The position numbers were made by a program, and so were the translations under genes. This document shows positions 431 to 59,280 of a stretch of DNA of 64,000 nucleotides, in pieces. Position 1 is the stretch's first letter, and each line of letters opens with the position of its first letter. This stretch comes from an uncultured Rhizobium sp. (GTDB lineage Bacteria; Pseudomonadota; Alphaproteobacteria; Rickettsiales; UBA1997), in contig CAYUSO010000006.1 of the NCBI GenBank assembly GCA_964447395.1, forward strand, positions 10,154-74,153. Reading direction: 5' to 3'. Under the pieces are notes generated by a model. That model made no database searches, was not told the DNA's origin, and saw only the letters and a program-made list of their open reading frames with translations.

Positions 431-565
431 TCTTAAGTTCCCCGAGCGTTCTTAGTTCCCCGAGCGGAGTCGAGGGGATGAGAGTCGGCTTTTTCACCCC
501 TCGACTCCGCTCGGGGAGCTAAGAACCCGCGAAGAGCTAAGAACTCGAGGGGAGCTAAGAACTTG
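431..565. repeat. Family A palindromic element, compound copy A1
   Basis: Core AGTTCCCCGAGCGGAGTCGAGGGG at 454-477 and its reverse complement at 497-520, with a 19-nt spacer. Flanked by degenerate sub-repeats: cttaagttcccc/cttagttcccc on the left and gagctaagaac three times on the right. Confidence 0.9.
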
Positions 566-3613: not shown

Positions 3614-3678
3614 AAACGATGACGATTTAGCTATGGATCTAGTGCCAGACTGGGTCTGCAACCCACGTCCCGCATCGA

Positions 3679-3757
3679 GATCTCAGCTCCCCGAGCGAAG
3701 TCGAGGGGACGTGAGTTCGTTTTTCCACCCCTCGACTTCGCTCGGGGAGCTGAGATC
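3679..3757. repeat. Family A palindromic element, copy A2
   Basis: gatctcagctccccgagcgaagtcgagggg at 3679-3708 and cccctcgacttcgctcggggagctgagatc at 3728-3757. Imperfect pairing extends outward (cgtcc at 3666-3670, ggacg at 3767-3771). Confidence 0.9.
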
Positions 3758-3844
3758 AACCGTTGGACGGGGGTTCAAATCAGGTCCTGCATCTCGTTTA
3801 ATCTGTCATTCCGAAACTTGTTCCATGATTCGTCTTTCCGCAAA

Positions 3845-5092
3845 CTAAATCACAATTTTTTTCTTCACCCCACTCACCTTCCCAATCGCTGCAAATGTTG
3901 GCTTTGAGCCGCTAAAAATTTTCTCTGCCAATTTCGTCACATCTGATTTTTTTACCGCCGAAATCTTCTTCATAATTTCGTGGTCAGATTGAATTTTTCC
4001 GAGCGACAAAATATCCGAACCAAGCTTTTGCATTCTCGTGCTAGTGCTTTCTTTTGCCATCAACAAACTAGCTTCAAACTGCGTCCTTACTCGTTCCATC
4101 TCTTTATCAGAAATCTTTTCGCAGATTTTTTTTATCTGATCGCAAGTCGCAGAAATTAATTCATTAGCTTTTTCTGGCGTAGTTCCGGCGTAAATTCCAA
4201 ATATTCCCGAATCATGATGTGCCTGATTGAAGGCATAGATTGAATAAGCTAGGCCGCGCTGTTCGCGTACTTCTTGAAATAATCGTGACGACATTCCGCC
4301 ACCTAAAATCATCGCTAAAATTTGTGAGGTGTAATAATCGCGATCCAAGTAAGACAAGCCTTTAAAGCCCATCACTAAGTTTATTTGTTCGAGTTTTTTT
4401 TCTTTTCTGAAATCGCCACCAGAATATTTTGCTGCTTGTGGAGCCTTGATTTTCGCGCTTCCGAAGCCAGTAAAATATTTTTTCACCCACTTCTCCAAAT
4501 CTTTTTCTTTAATCGCGCCCGCCGCAACTACCGCCATGTTTTGGTAGTTATATTGCTTGCCGATATAGTTGGTAAAATCTTCGCGCGAAAATTTTTTAAT
4601 ATTTTTTACCGGCCCGAGAATCGAACGCCCGAGGGCTTGCGCGGGATATGCAGTTTCCTGAAAATAATCAAAAATAATGTCGTCAGGAGTGTCATTGGTC
4701 ATGGCGATTTCCTGCAAAATCACGCCGCGTTCTTTTTCCAATTCCACTTTGTCGAATGTAGAATTTTGCAAAATATCAGCGAGAAATTCGACGGCAAATT
4801 CCGCGTGCTGCTTCAAAACTTTTGCATAATAAACGGTTTTCTCCTTAGAGGTATAAGCGTTGATGCGTCCACCAATTCCCTCAAATTCTTCAGCAATTTC
4901 TTTGGCATTTCTCTTCGTAGTTCCCTTGAAAGCCATATGTTCGAGGAAGTGCGAAATGCCGTTAATCTCAGGTGTTTCATAGCGCGAACCGGTATTGACG
5001 AAGACACCGACGGAAACGGTTTCAACATCTTTCATTTCGTCGGTAGCAAGGCGCAGGCCGTTTGGGAGGGTGACTATTTGTTGGTTTGACAT
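3845..5092 (-). CDS. M16 family zinc peptidase (mitochondrial-processing-peptidase-like)
   Basis: 415 aa. Inverted zinc motif HFLEHMAFKGT (HxxEH) near the N-terminus and a two-lobed M16 layout. Confidence 0.9.
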   Translation of the reverse strand: MSNQQIVTLPNGLRLATDEMKDVETVSVGVFVNTGSRYETPEINGISHFLEHMAFKGTTKRNAKEIAEEFEGIGGRINAYTSKEKTVYYAKVLKQHAEFAVEFLADILQNSTFDKVELEKERGVILQEIAMTNDTPDDIIFDYFQETAYPAQALGRSILGPVKNIKKFSREDFTNYIGKQYNYQNMAVVAAGAIKEKDLEKWVKKYFTGFGSAKIKAPQAAKYSGGDFRKEKKLEQINLVMGFKGLSYLDRDYYTSQILAMILGGGMSSRLFQEVREQRGLAYSIYAFNQAHHDSGIFGIYAGTTPEKANELISATCDQIKKICEKISDKEMERVRTQFEASLLMAKESTSTRMQKLGSDILSLGKIQSDHEIMKKISAVKKSDVTKLAEKIFSGSKPTFAAIGKVSGVKKKIVI

Positions 5093-5128
5093 GAGAGAAT
5101 TTTTCTTAAGAATTTAGTTTATATTAAA

Positions 5129-5195
5129 GCCCCTCGACTCCGCTTGGGGAACTAAAAAACTCCAATTTTTAGTTCCCCAAGCGGAGTCGAGGGGC
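5129..5195. repeat. Family A palindromic element, permuted copy A3
   Basis: gcccctcgactccgcttggggaact, then a 17-nt spacer, then agttccccaagcggagtcgaggggc. The arms are in the opposite order to A1, A2, A5, A6, A7 and A8. Confidence 0.9.
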
Positions 5196-5213
5196 TATTT
5201 TTTCAAATTCATC

Positions 5214-7094
5214 ATGCGCTCCCCTCCACTATTGTCAATCCGCGACGCCACTATCTCCTTCGCCAAAAAAGTTCTTTTTGAAAATCTTCATCTTCATCTT
5301 TTTCCGCGTGATCGCGTTTGCTTGATTGGCAAAAATGGCGTCGGAAAAACTAGTTTGATGAATGCGATTGCTGGACAATTTGATCTCGATTGCGGTGAAC
5401 GCTGGATCACGCCTCACGCCATTGTTGGTTATTTGACGCAAAGTGAAAAACTGCCTTCAGGCCTTACGGTGTTTGATTTCATCATGTCTGGCATAAAACT
5501 TGATGAGCATAAAACTTACCTCATCGACATCGTTTGTGATCACCTAAAAGTCGATAAAAATGCCTTCACACAAAATCTTTCTGGTGGGCAGAAACGCCGC
5601 GTCAATCTTGCTCGCGCATTGGTTTTAGAACCTGATATTTTGCTACTCGATGAGCCAACAAATCACCTCGATTTGGAAGTGATTGAATGGTTAGAAAATT
5701 ACTTACAGAGCTTTCAAGGCGCGCTGCTAGTGATTTCGCACGATCGCAAATTTCTCGAAAAAATTTCCAACAAAGTTTTTTGGCTGCGCGCCGGACAGTT
5801 AAAAATTAATCAAAACGGTTATCGCGATTTCGATGAATGGTCGCAAAAAATTATCGAGCATGAACAAAGAGAGTTGACGAATTTAGAAAAGAAAGTCGGA
5901 CTCGAAAGCGGCTGGCTACAAACCGGTGTGACCGGAAGAAGAAAAAGAAACATCGGTCGCCTCCACTATTTGCAAGAGTTGCGAACGAAATTGGAAGCGC
6001 AAAAAAGATTGGTAAAAGCGAATCAGAGCTACATGAAAATCGAATCGCAAAAAATCGAGGAAGACGCGCCGCAGGTGATTTTGAGTTTGAATAATGTGAG
6101 CAAGAGTTTTTCTCGAGACCCCTCGACTCCGCTCGGGGAGCCGAATGAATCTAGTTCCCCGAGCGAAGTCGAGGGGCCAAAAAACCTCATCGAAAAATTC
6201 TCCCTAAAAATCCTCCGTGGCGAAAAAATCGGAATTATCGGCCGCAATGGCGCAGGAAAATCTACGCTTTTAAAAATGATGATTGGTGAAATTAAGCCCG
6301 ATTCTGGAACCGTCAAACCAGCCCGCGACATAAGCATTTCCTACTTCGATCAATCGCGCAGTAAAATAAAACCGACTTCAACAATTCAAGAAATTCTCTG
6401 CGATTCTGGTTCCGATTACGTCAAACTCGCTGGCGATAAAACCATGCATATTTGCGGCTATCTCAAGAATTTTTTATTCGATCCCAAAGAAACTCAAACA
6501 TTGGCCGGAACATTGTCTGGCGGGCAACAAAACCGTTTATTGCTGGCAAAAACTTTGGCGAATCCGGGAAATTTTATGATCCTCGACGAACCAACAAATG
6601 ATCTCGACATGGATAGTTTGGATATGTTGCAGGAATATTTGATGAGCTACAAAGGCACGCTAATCGTGGTTTCACACGATCGTGATTTTTTGGATAATGT
6701 GGCAACAAGCATTCTTGCCTTTGAGGGAAATGCAAAAATAAGTAATCATGTTGGCGGTTATTCGGATTATTTGGAATATAGGCAGAAGCATGATTCTCCT
6801 GTCCCCAAAGCGCCTCCAGTCTCTTCAAAAACTATTGAAAATATTGCTGTTGCGAGTGGAAATTCGAATGCAAAAAAACTCAGCTATAAGTACCGACTTG
6901 AGCTCGAAAAACTTCCGCAGAAAATTGAGAAGCTTGAAGAAAAAATTCGTGAGCTGAGTGAAGAGTTGAGTGAGACTGAAGATAGGAATTCGGCAAATTT
7001 GGCCCATATCGCAATTGAAATCGCAAAATATCAGAAGGAGCTTAATGCTGCGGAAGAGCGCTGGCTTGAGCTTGAAGAGATGAATCAAGTTTGA
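5214..7094 (+). CDS. uup: ABC-F family ATPase, Uup-like, carrying an in-frame family A element
   Basis: 626 aa. Two ABC cassettes: Walker A GKNGVGKTS and GRNGAGKST, signatures LSGGQKRR and LSGGQQNR. C-terminal coiled coil KLSYKYRLELEKLPQKIEKLEEKI. Confidence 0.9.
   Translation: MRSPPLLSIRDATISFAKKVLFENLHLHLFPRDRVCLIGKNGVGKTSLMNAIAGQFDLDCGERWITPHAIVGYLTQSEKLPSGLTVFDFIMSGIKLDEHKTYLIDIVCDHLKVDKNAFTQNLSGGQKRRVNLARALVLEPDILLLDEPTNHLDLEVIEWLENYLQSFQGALLVISHDRKFLEKISNKVFWLRAGQLKINQNGYRDFDEWSQKIIEHEQRELTNLEKKVGLESGWLQTGVTGRRKRNIGRLHYLQELRTKLEAQKRLVKANQSYMKIESQKIEEDAPQVILSLNNVSKSFSRDPSTPLGEPNESSSPSEVEGPKNLIEKFSLKILRGEKIGIIGRNGAGKSTLLKMMIGEIKPDSGTVKPARDISISYFDQSRSKIKPTSTIQEILCDSGSDYVKLAGDKTMHICGYLKNFLFDPKETQTLAGTLSGGQQNRLLLAKTLANPGNFMILDEPTNDLDMDSLDMLQEYLMSYKGTLIVVSHDRDFLDNVATSILAFEGNAKISNHVGGYSDYLEYRQKHDSPVPKAPPVSSKTIENIAVASGNSNAKKLSYKYRLELEKLPQKIEKLEEKIRELSEELSETEDRNSANLAHIAIEIAKYQKELNAAEERWLELEEMNQV
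6119..6176. repeat. Family A palindromic element, permuted copy A4, inside the uup ORF
   Basis: cccctcgactccgctcggggagc at 6119-6141 and agttccccgagcgaagtcgagggg at 6153-6176. Translated in frame as DPSTPLGEPNESSSPSEVEG. Confidence 0.9.
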
Positions 7095-15217: not shown

Positions 15218-16086
15218 AATTTGTTGCGGATGGATTGGATTCTTTTTTGAATTTGGTCGATGGGAATCGACTGGTAGTTGTCGGAATAATTTTTTGCAAC
15301 GTTTGAGTAGAACTCGAGAGCTTTTTCATATTGATCTGTCTTGTCGTAGATCACTGCAAGGTTGTATTGATAGCTCAAATTTTCTGCATCGATCGAAACC
15401 GCTTTTTGCAAAAGTAAAATTGCTTGGTCGTAATTTTTTACTTTGTCGTAAGCAATTGCTGCGTGAGCTAAAATATTTGCTGAATTAGGATTTTGAACTG
15501 AGAGACGAGAAAGCAGATAAATCGCATCTCGCGGCGATTCTTCTACCATGATCGCCAAAAGATTTCCGATGATTTCATCTTGATTATCCAAAGAAGATTT
15601 TAGCAGTTGATAGTAGAGAGTTTTTGCTTGGCGGAATTGTCCAATTTTTTGATAAACTGCGGCGAGAGAAAATTTAGCGTAATTATTTTTCGAATCGGAA
15701 TCGAGAATTTCTTTATAGAGCTGAATCGAAACTTCATATTGGCCAATCAACGCGGCGTTGTAAGCGAGCTTTTCTTTTTCGACAATTTCTAGATTATCTG
15801 TTTTTGAATTGGCGACGCTGATTTCAACCGAGTTGGATTTTTTTTGCTCATCTTCATTTCCAGCAATGATCGTAAAATCACTTTTTTTTCTGGAATTATC
15901 GTTTTGGTAAAAATCAATTTTTTGGCGAGAATCTTTGTCGAAGAGTAAAGATTTTTCGATTTCCTTTACGATTTGAGAGTTTGAAACGACGGTTTCGGCG
16001 TAGGAGTTTTGCGGAATTTGAAGAGCTGCGAATAGAAAAAGAAATGCGAAGTTTTTTAACCGAAATTTAAAAAATTCATTCCGCAT
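15214..16086 (-). CDS. secreted tetratricopeptide-repeat protein
   Basis: 290 aa. Signal-peptide-like N-terminus [18 protein letters not shown]. Repeated TPR-like units: [66 protein letters not shown] overlap with pilT. Confidence 0.75.
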
Positions 16087-57620: not shown

Positions 57621-57688
57621 TAGTTCCCCGAGCGGAGTCGAGGGGTTAAGAGTTTGCTTTCTTACCCCTCGACTCCGCTCGGGGAACT
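57621..57688. repeat. Family A palindromic element, copy A7
   Basis: tagttccccgagcggagtcgagggg at 57621-57645 and cccctcgactccgctcggggaact at 57665-57688. These are perfect 24-nt arms with a 19-nt spacer. Confidence 0.92.
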
Positions 57689-59169: not shown

Positions 59170-59188
59170 AGTTTAAATTTTTTTGGCT

Positions 59189-59280
59189 TAGCTCCCCGAG
59201 CGGAGTCGAGGGGTTCGCGAGTAAAACTCAAATCCCCTCGACTCCGCTCGGGGAACTGAGGTGATGTCGGAGAGCTGAGG
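59189..59280. repeat. Family A palindromic element, copy A8
   Basis: tagctccccgagcggagtcgagggg at 59189-59213 and cccctcgactccgctcggggaactgag at 59234-59260. An extra partial sub-repeat gagctgagg lies at 59272-59280. Confidence 0.9.

Follow-up and report, generated by a model that had tools for sequence, protein, structure and literature searches.

The window analysed here is a 64,000-nucleotide stretch of contig CAYUSO010000006.1, from an uncultured alphaproteobacterium, and its gene for an Uup-like ABC-F ATPase (uup) is read in frame through a palindromic DNA element. It is highly probable that a palindrome of an interspersed repeat family, here called family A, was copied into the codons of a tight turn in the second nucleotide-binding domain (NBD2) of Uup without loss of the reading frame; the added residues would form a flexible loop that the protein tolerates, and the element would be carried as a passenger. 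Comparison with relatives shows that the same turn holds palindromes of several other, unrelated DNA families.

The palindrome within uup and its host gene

The features of the host gene and of the element within it are as follows.

5214..7094, + strand: host gene, ABC-F ATPase Uup-like, 626 aa, intact (from the open reading frame (ORF), NCBIfam, Pfam and the PDB match 9nlj_U)
6111..6185, + strand: replaced hairpin turn, codons 300–324 of uup (SRDPSTPLGEPNESSSPSEVEGPKN) (from ortholog alignments, the empty-site DNA of L145 and a predicted local distance difference test (pLDDT) score below 50 at 300–321)
6119..6139, + strand: left arm, A' orientation, CCCCTCGACTCCGCTCGGGGA, read as PSTPLGE
6140..6155, + strand: 16-nt spacer, GCCGAATGAATCTAGT, like the outer flanks RCTRAG / CTYAGY of canonical copies and unlike their conserved loop
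6156..6176, + strand: right arm, A orientation, TCCCCGAGCGAAGTCGAGGGG, with one mismatch to the consensus, read as SPSEVEG
6179..6184, + strand: A6 run adjoining the element (from the sequence and from empty and filled sites of orthologs)

The two arms, of 21 nt each, pair at 20 of 21 positions (95% complementary) across the 16-nt spacer to give a 58-nt hairpin. As RNA, the element folds with −48 kcal/mol (z = −7.6), a stability that was reached by none of 200 shuffles, and as DNA with −26.3 kcal/mol (z = −6.6). All six frames of the G+C-rich family A arms are free of stop codons, so that the element can be read through, and since the net gain is 63 nt the reading frame of uup survives. The inserted peptide is rich in Ser, Pro, Glu and Gly. 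An intrinsic terminator inside uup was considered and rejected, the element having no terminator-like site or tail. ARAGORN and Rfam at gathering thresholds gave no known RNA gene in the window; with permissive Rfam thresholds the sole matches were those of generic hairpins to eukaryotic miRNA models, with no family that fits, and blastn against plasmids gave no match.

The ORF is uninterrupted over 626 codons and free of stops across the inserted element, and its translation holds the string ...NNVSKSF-SRDPSTPLGEPNESSSPSEVEGPKN-LIEKFSLKILRGEKIGIIGRNGAGKST, identical to the peptide quoted in an earlier note made from the sequence of this DNA. Both Walker A motifs (G39–T46 and G343–T351) and both LSGGQ signatures (122–126 and 434–438) are present; Pfam finds two ABC_tran domains and ABC_tran_CTD, with the C-terminal coiled coil (PF16326) at 555–622, and all of the columns that are invariant across 54 orthologs are kept. 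The statements of the earlier note that the uup ORF reads straight through this copy (its A4) and that the gene is otherwise intact are thus borne out. The protein has the two ABC domains with Walker A/B and LSGGQ motifs and the helical linker between them (helices 206–274 in the AlphaFold model) that define an ABC-F protein, and it passes the general ABC-F model NF000355 (410 against a cutoff of 380). Its best NCBIfam model is Uup, NF050005, with 510.7 bits, which lies below the 900-bit equivalog cutoff of that model, and its best PDB match is E. coli Uup (9nlj_U). The gene order M16 peptidase, uup, PPDK is kept relative to relatives.

Comparison of the turn among orthologs

The 120 closest orthologs (71–81% identity, from a search of 5.8 billion proteins) were aligned, and a distant set of 145 full-length Uup-like proteins (35–69% identity) was taken from an exhaustive profile-free search of 1.84 billion cluster representatives. 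The relatives are labelled as Rickettsiales, Pelagibacterales or Alphaproteobacteria metagenome-assembled genomes (MAGs). In 81 of the 120 closest orthologs, strands β1 and β2 of NBD2 are joined by a turn of four residues, typically GEKK or GEKA, preceded by ...NNVSK(S/T/G)(F/Y) and followed by LI(D/E)KFSLKILRGEKIGIIG. The window Uup has 25 residues in place of GEKK (GGC GAA AAA AAA), a net gain of 21 aa or 63 nt. Against the closest insert-free ortholog, P0015 (603 aa, 79% identity), the alignment has a single clean 21-residue gap at window residues 300–320, the remaining gaps being two single residues, both in the C-terminal linker, and the DNA of P0015 (L145) gives the empty site as TTT GGC GAA AAA AAA TTA. 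The turn of the 145 distant proteins spans 0–9 residues, with exactly four in 108, and the residue preceding it is aromatic in 123.

Because the turn has four residues in most orthologs, the gap against P0015 is clean, the turns of the distant set are short and palindromes of the family are found also between genes, the segment in uup is an insertion of 63 nt net rather than ancestral sequence. The A6 run at 6179–6184 is probably the remnant of the ancestral GAAAAAAAA of the turn. The earlier note had held that only a few residues normally stand at this position and that some 22–25 residues had been inserted, and had proposed an alignment of orthologs as a check. The former point is confirmed, and the alignment supports insertion, with no sign that the segment is ancestral or conserved at the protein level; the size is refined to 21 aa net, with 25 residues replacing GEKK.

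Position of the insert in the protein

Two AlphaFold2 models were compared, of the window Uup and of P0015, each based on a 54-sequence alignment. In the model of the window Uup, residues 300–321, which lie between strands 288–296 and 329–334, have pLDDT values below 50, with about 75–85 in the remainder of NBD2, and in the model of P0015 strands 288–299 and 302–313 form a tight hairpin with values of 83–87. The inserted segment is probably a disordered loop in the β1–β2 hairpin of NBD2, as predicted by these models. The surface hairpin of NBD2 that had been proposed earlier is in agreement with them, as is the outcome of setting structures with and without the segment side by side, namely a disordered loop in the window protein and a tight hairpin in the insert-free ortholog; the refinement is that the site adjoins ATP site 2.

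In ABC ATPases, the aromatic residue of the A-loop stacks on adenine. With the insert removed, F299 lies 23 residues ahead of the first glycine of the second Walker A motif (G343), which is the spacing of the A-loop aromatic, and we take F299 to be the A-loop position on the basis of family knowledge (Ambudkar et al., 2006) together with the alignment. On this basis the insert starts one residue past the aromatic position of the A-loop at ATP site 2, within the β1–β2 turn.

Family A in the window

Matches to the arm CCCCTCGACTCCGCTCGGGGA (a 21-mer, at most three mismatches) number 15 in the window, where 100 shuffles gave an expectation of 0.00, and they group into eight elements, at about 457, 3688, 5130, 6119, 22709, 23759, 57625 and 59193. 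Six of the eight are intergenic and two are in frame in genes, those for Uup and for an AFG1-like ATPase. The single arm match at 23759 marks a complete but diverged element. The seven copies apart from that in uup are listed here, with the strand where one is assigned.

436..538: canonical copy with an extra outer stem layer, intergenic
3679..3757: canonical copy at the centre of another (GGACGGGGTT-type) palindrome, intergenic
5128..5196: swapped-arm copy with a 31-bp perfect stem and a T6 run after it, 18 nt before the uup ATG, in a divergent intergenic region
22659..22820, − strand: composite palindrome with 71-nt arms, 162 nt or 54 codons, in frame in the AFG1/ZapE-like ATPase ORF 22340..23644
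23752..23826: diverged canonical copy, intergenic
57622..57688: canonical copy, intergenic
59187..59260: canonical copy, intergenic

The canonical consensus, CTYAGY-A-[TTNAGAGTTTGCTTTCCNA]-A'-RCTRAG with a loop of about 19 nt, is represented by five window copies and by L080, from another metagenome, and the copy at 22709 has the canonical arm order with a divergent loop. The swapped order A'...A without the conserved loop is confined in the window to the uup copy and the 5128–5196 copy, and the spacers of both resemble the joined outer flanks of canonical copies. In other metagenome contigs, among the matches listed, paired arms stand as A...A' in 11 cases versus A'...A in one. The 5128–5196 copy would resemble an intrinsic terminator or attenuator if it were transcribed in the uup leader; promoter-like hexamers at 5086–5113 lie upstream of it (within 5086–5213 of the window).

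The copy at 3679–3757 is surrounded by a palindrome (3650–3790) of the form GACTGGGTCTGCAACCCACGTCC ... GGACGGGGGTTCAAATCAGGTCC, which is related to the family inserted in the Uup of L019. The nesting is exactly central, and palindromes appear to insert into the loops of other palindromes. A tRNA or tmRNA at the 3688 copy, suggested by its GGTTCAAATC-like flanks, was rejected, as these flanks are the arms of the GGACGGGGTT... palindrome family, which is repeated also in L019. A run of at least six A or T adjoins four of the eight family A copies, against about 12% expected (rough binomial p of about 0.01), which is suggestive, with a definition made post hoc and intergenic AT-richness uncontrolled. 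Microhomology between AAGAGTTTG in the family loop and the uup codons AAG AGT TTT was likewise rejected as an explanation, since relatives that lack family A already have the sequence and there is no sign of a duplication.

Orthologous loci on 22 related contigs, 343 kb in all, have no match to the arm with at most three mismatches, and family A is lineage-specific among the relatives sampled. The exact 21-mer arm occurs in at least 120 metagenome contigs (L025–L144) with G+C contents from 33% to 72%, mostly as a single unit. The contexts of these arms suggest a cross-phylum class of small hairpins with the core GAGCG(G/A)AG(T/C)CGA(A/G) and variable complementary stems at its sides, for which no Rfam family or paper was found.

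The same turn in relatives

The turn exceeds four residues in 39 of the 120 close orthologs and has 13–82 residues in 23 of those. In a neighbour-joining tree for which the insert was masked, the orthologs with long inserts are scattered, often branching among relatives whose turn has four residues. At the DNA level, twelve orthologs with a lengthened turn and one empty site were compared. Inserts of 21–82 aa are present in 11 of the 12, the other, L001, having a 7-aa turn that was left out of the fold test. Nine of these 11 inserts fold significantly better than shuffles (z from −3.2 to −9.4), the exceptions being that of L006, which is weak (z = −2.3), and that of L019, which is degraded (z = −1.3). 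Several of the inserts recur elsewhere in the contigs that carry them. At least eight unrelated palindromic DNA families are found at the turn, including GTAG-tagged and CGTC-tagged types of repetitive extragenic palindromic (REP) sequence.

Family A: the window; L146 has a diverged, rearranged family-A-like insert
GGACGGGGTT...AACCCCGTCC: L019
CGTC-tagged ATCCTTGG: L020, L147 and L024
CCTCCTTTGAAAAAGGAGG: L148 and L006
GTAG-tagged palindrome: L021
GGACCCCG: L022, with a second copy in the M16–uup intergenic region, as in the window
111-nt tandem duplication containing palindromes: L023
A+T-rich palindrome: L002

Three or four separate clades have the CGTC-tagged family at the Uup turn, and the same holds for the CCTCCTTTG family. 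With few exceptions the inserted DNA follows the codon for the aromatic residue and precedes the A-tract of the turn (GGN, the insertion point, then GAAAAAAAA). The number of independent colonisations in the clade, estimated by eye from the neighbour-joining tree with no formal count, may be of the order of ten or more.

No insert of at least 13 aa was found at any other internal position of Uup in the 120 orthologs, in which smaller length variation elsewhere is seen only in the disordered linker before the coiled coil. This linker is a second, weaker permissive site. In the Uup of L019 (P0004), a second GGACGGGGTT-type copy, at about 4560, lies in the linker at the equivalent of window residues ~538–549, where pLDDT is below 50. 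None of the 145 distant representatives has a long insert at the turn (maximum 9 aa) and, given this, the hotspot is a property of the palindrome-rich clade.

Strong palindromes also occupy the M16 peptidase–uup intergenic region (170 nt upstream of uup) in seven loci (L008, L009, L019, L020, L022, L023 and the window); they belong to different families and reach −117 kcal/mol, and the upstream family is the same as the family in the turn in the window and in L022. No earlier description of the colonisation of one turn by many unrelated palindromes was found in the literature searched; searching by sequence motif gave nothing relevant, and no paper on Rickettsia palindromic elements (RPEs) and uup was found.

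It is possible, if somewhat doubtful, that the four-residue turn is a true insertion hotspot at the DNA level, beyond being a permissive loop. That tagged families, both GTAG and CGTC, and untagged ones are all represented at the turn speaks against the preference of a single transposase. If the hotspot is real, mechanistically different REP-like elements would share a target or a host-mediated route, for example template switching or breakage at the A-tract, and the turn would be a natural experiment on the entry of palindromic repeats into genes.

Route of insertion and alternative explanations

The insertion can be pictured as the copying into uup of a member of the lineage-specific, non-coding palindromic family A, which would be of the REP-dimer kind or like a miniature inverted-repeat transposable element (MITE). 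The landing site would lie between the codon for F299, at the A-loop position, and the A-rich codons of the β1–β2 turn of NBD2. With the reading frame preserved, because the arms are stop-free and 63 nt are gained, Uup would be expected to be made at full length; a Pro-, Ser-, Glu- and Gly-rich loop of 21 added residues, which is predicted to be disordered, would protrude from the tight hairpin turn and would be tolerated; the insertion would persist because the turn accepts extra residues. Rather than an adaptation, the element most likely represents a passenger, neutral or slightly deleterious.

Several observations weigh against this explanation. The uup copy is non-canonical, and simple transposition of a canonical unit would fail to explain its structure. 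No consistent target-site duplication was found at the eight family A copies, and neither terminal inverted repeats nor a transposase were found for the family. Neutrality is not assured for a turn that lies within CORE2, one residue from the A-loop position, and the confidence of strand β2 falls with the insert (pLDDT of 58 at 321–330). The copying route, the production of the peptide and the retention of function are all matters that we infer from sequence.

A local origin, through template switching during replication or gene conversion from the 5128–5196 copy and not through transposition of a mobile unit, is unlikely, although it would account for the swapped arm order. The only two swapped copies of the window (5128–5196 and 6119–6176) lie 1 kb apart with spacers that both resemble outer flanks joined together, growth in nested layers is seen in family A palindromes, and in L022 a different family is likewise present in both the Uup turn and the M16–uup intergenic region. 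However, the two window copies differ in their spacers and in their arm variants (CTTGGGGA versus CTCGGGGA), the upstream and in-gene palindromes are of different families in the other relatives examined, and the arms would still have had to be copied from a family member.

Co-option of the loop, or of the −48 kcal/mol mRNA hairpin, for a lineage-specific function such as an altered contact with the ribosome or 30S subunit, modulation of ATP site 2 or translational pausing in uup mRNA is quite improbable. The position of the site gives this idea some appeal, since it adjoins the A-loop position and belongs to CORE2, which in E. coli Uup makes the 30S contact, to 16S rRNA and uS7 (bioRxiv 10.1101/2023.06.15.543498); long inserts have been retained at this site in many relatives, and a second copy stands in the uup leader region of the window. 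Nevertheless, different lineages have inserts of unrelated sequence, 13–82 aa in length, the segment in the window Uup is predicted to be disordered, identical DNA is present in intergenic regions, the hairpin has no terminator-like tail, and most orthologs, close ones included, function with four residues.

That a long loop was ancestral to the clade and was lost repeatedly to leave GEKK is scarcely credible: all ten members of the immediate clade of the window do have long inserts, but at least five DNA families, unrelated to one another, are represented among these, the turn is short in sister lineages (P0015 and P0018/19) and in the 145 distant representatives, and repeated exact restoration of GGN GAA AAA AAA is implausible. 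A repeat-induced chimeric join can be set aside with similar assurance: the contig evidently comes from a MAG, assemblers can be misled by repeats and the exact window protein is recorded only once, yet both flanks are precisely orthologous uup sequence, in frame and with synteny kept (M16 peptidase, uup, PPDK), and analogous in-frame palindromes stand at the same codon in independent assemblies from other samples.

Other in-frame palindromes and side loci

In-frame palindromes are present in at least three housekeeping genes of the window. In the AFG1/ZapE-like ATPase, through which the family A composite is read in frame, the Pfam match is split into two stretches; the composite consists of nested layers of CTCAGTTCCCCAAGC and encodes the peptide ...FPERSRGATKENFHPLDSARGTE..., and no solved structure of an AFG1-like protein exists in which the insert could be placed. 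A different palindrome, AGTCGTAAGTCGTGAGTTGTAAGTC, is in frame in MnmG/GidA at 17612–17710 (ORF 16076..18133, − strand), and a 12-mer related to it occurs at about 23279 in the AFG1-like gene, encoding the peptide TRLTTYSLQLTT. An A+T-rich palindromic and tandem array (AATTAAGAATTAAGAATT...) lies at 43077–43176, in the intergenic region between the divergent ORFs 41913..43073 (− strand) and 43179..44192 (+ strand).

Comparison with known repeat systems

RPEs are interspersed palindromic repeats of 100–150 bp (PMC1779305), of which RPE-1 to RPE-10 (Ogata et al., 2000/2002; Claverie & Ogata, 2003) are summarised in PMC10969869 and PMC1779305, and both in-frame RPEs and intragenic REP dimers that encode 20–30 aa have been documented (PMC10969869, PMC3733652, PMC1779305). 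Family A resembles them as a set of interspersed palindromes in a Rickettsiales-like alphaproteobacterium, intergenic and also in frame in housekeeping genes (six and two of the eight copies, respectively), with a peptide added at a position compatible with the fold, with several coexisting families and with lineage-specific proliferation. It differs in length, the core being 58 nt (63 nt net) and the canonical copies 67–79 nt, so that composites alone reach 103–162 nt, and in its host, an uncultured freshwater or environmental lineage and not Rickettsia, the likeness shown here being one of behaviour. The assignment of the element as RPE-type selfish DNA in the earlier note holds in this respect only: the intergenic and in-frame behaviour of a palindrome stands, and membership of the RPEs, whose length range the uup element does not reach, is not claimed.

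For REP sequences and REPINs (Bertels & Rainey, 2011, PMC3116915; Di Nocera et al., 2013, PMC3733652), the similarity lies in organization. The REP unit of 20–40 nt, arranged as an inverted doublet with a short spacer, has its counterpart in the two inverted ~21-nt arms of family A, which are separated by 16–20 nt, form a long hairpin and are mostly extragenic. REP superfamilies are recognised by a GTAG or CGTC tag (PMC3733652), and neither tag nor its complement is present in the arms of family A or in its flanks CTYAGY / RCTRAG; moreover, the arm order of the uup copy is opposite to that of the canonical dimer. No gene for a REP-associated tyrosine transposase (RAYT) was identified among the 11 scanned ORFs of the 64-kb window, and no wider RAYT search was made. 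Relatives have true GTAG-tagged (L021) or CGTC-tagged (L020, L024 and L147) palindromes in the Uup turn. MITEs and similar repeats (ERIC, BOX, Correia/NEMIS; PMC10969869) are likewise small, non-autonomous and structured, and can be read through in ORFs. For family A, neither terminal inverted repeats around a non-palindromic body nor a target-site duplication nor a related insertion sequence was seen. In its behaviour the uup element resembles an RPE or a REP dimer, and family membership in either is not claimed.

In conclusion, a single in-frame insertion is ordinary for an element of this class; in-frame palindromic insertions have long been known, from the RPEs of Rickettsia onwards, and the present case adds an uncultured Rickettsiales-like lineage and a translation factor to their range. 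What goes further, and was found nowhere in the literature searched, is the recurrent colonisation of one turn by unrelated palindromes. One tight β-turn beside an ATP-binding residue accepts 13–82 residues, whereas the rest of the ~600-aa protein is without long internal inserts (at least 13 aa), so that relatives provide a natural map of a highly permissive ABC-F site that could guide tagging or engineering. Variation in the length of Uup orthologs is here a matter of repeat DNA and not of domain evolution, which is a warning for annotation, and the turn offers a tractable case in which to ask whether the entry of repeats into genes is limited by the choice of target or by selection alone.

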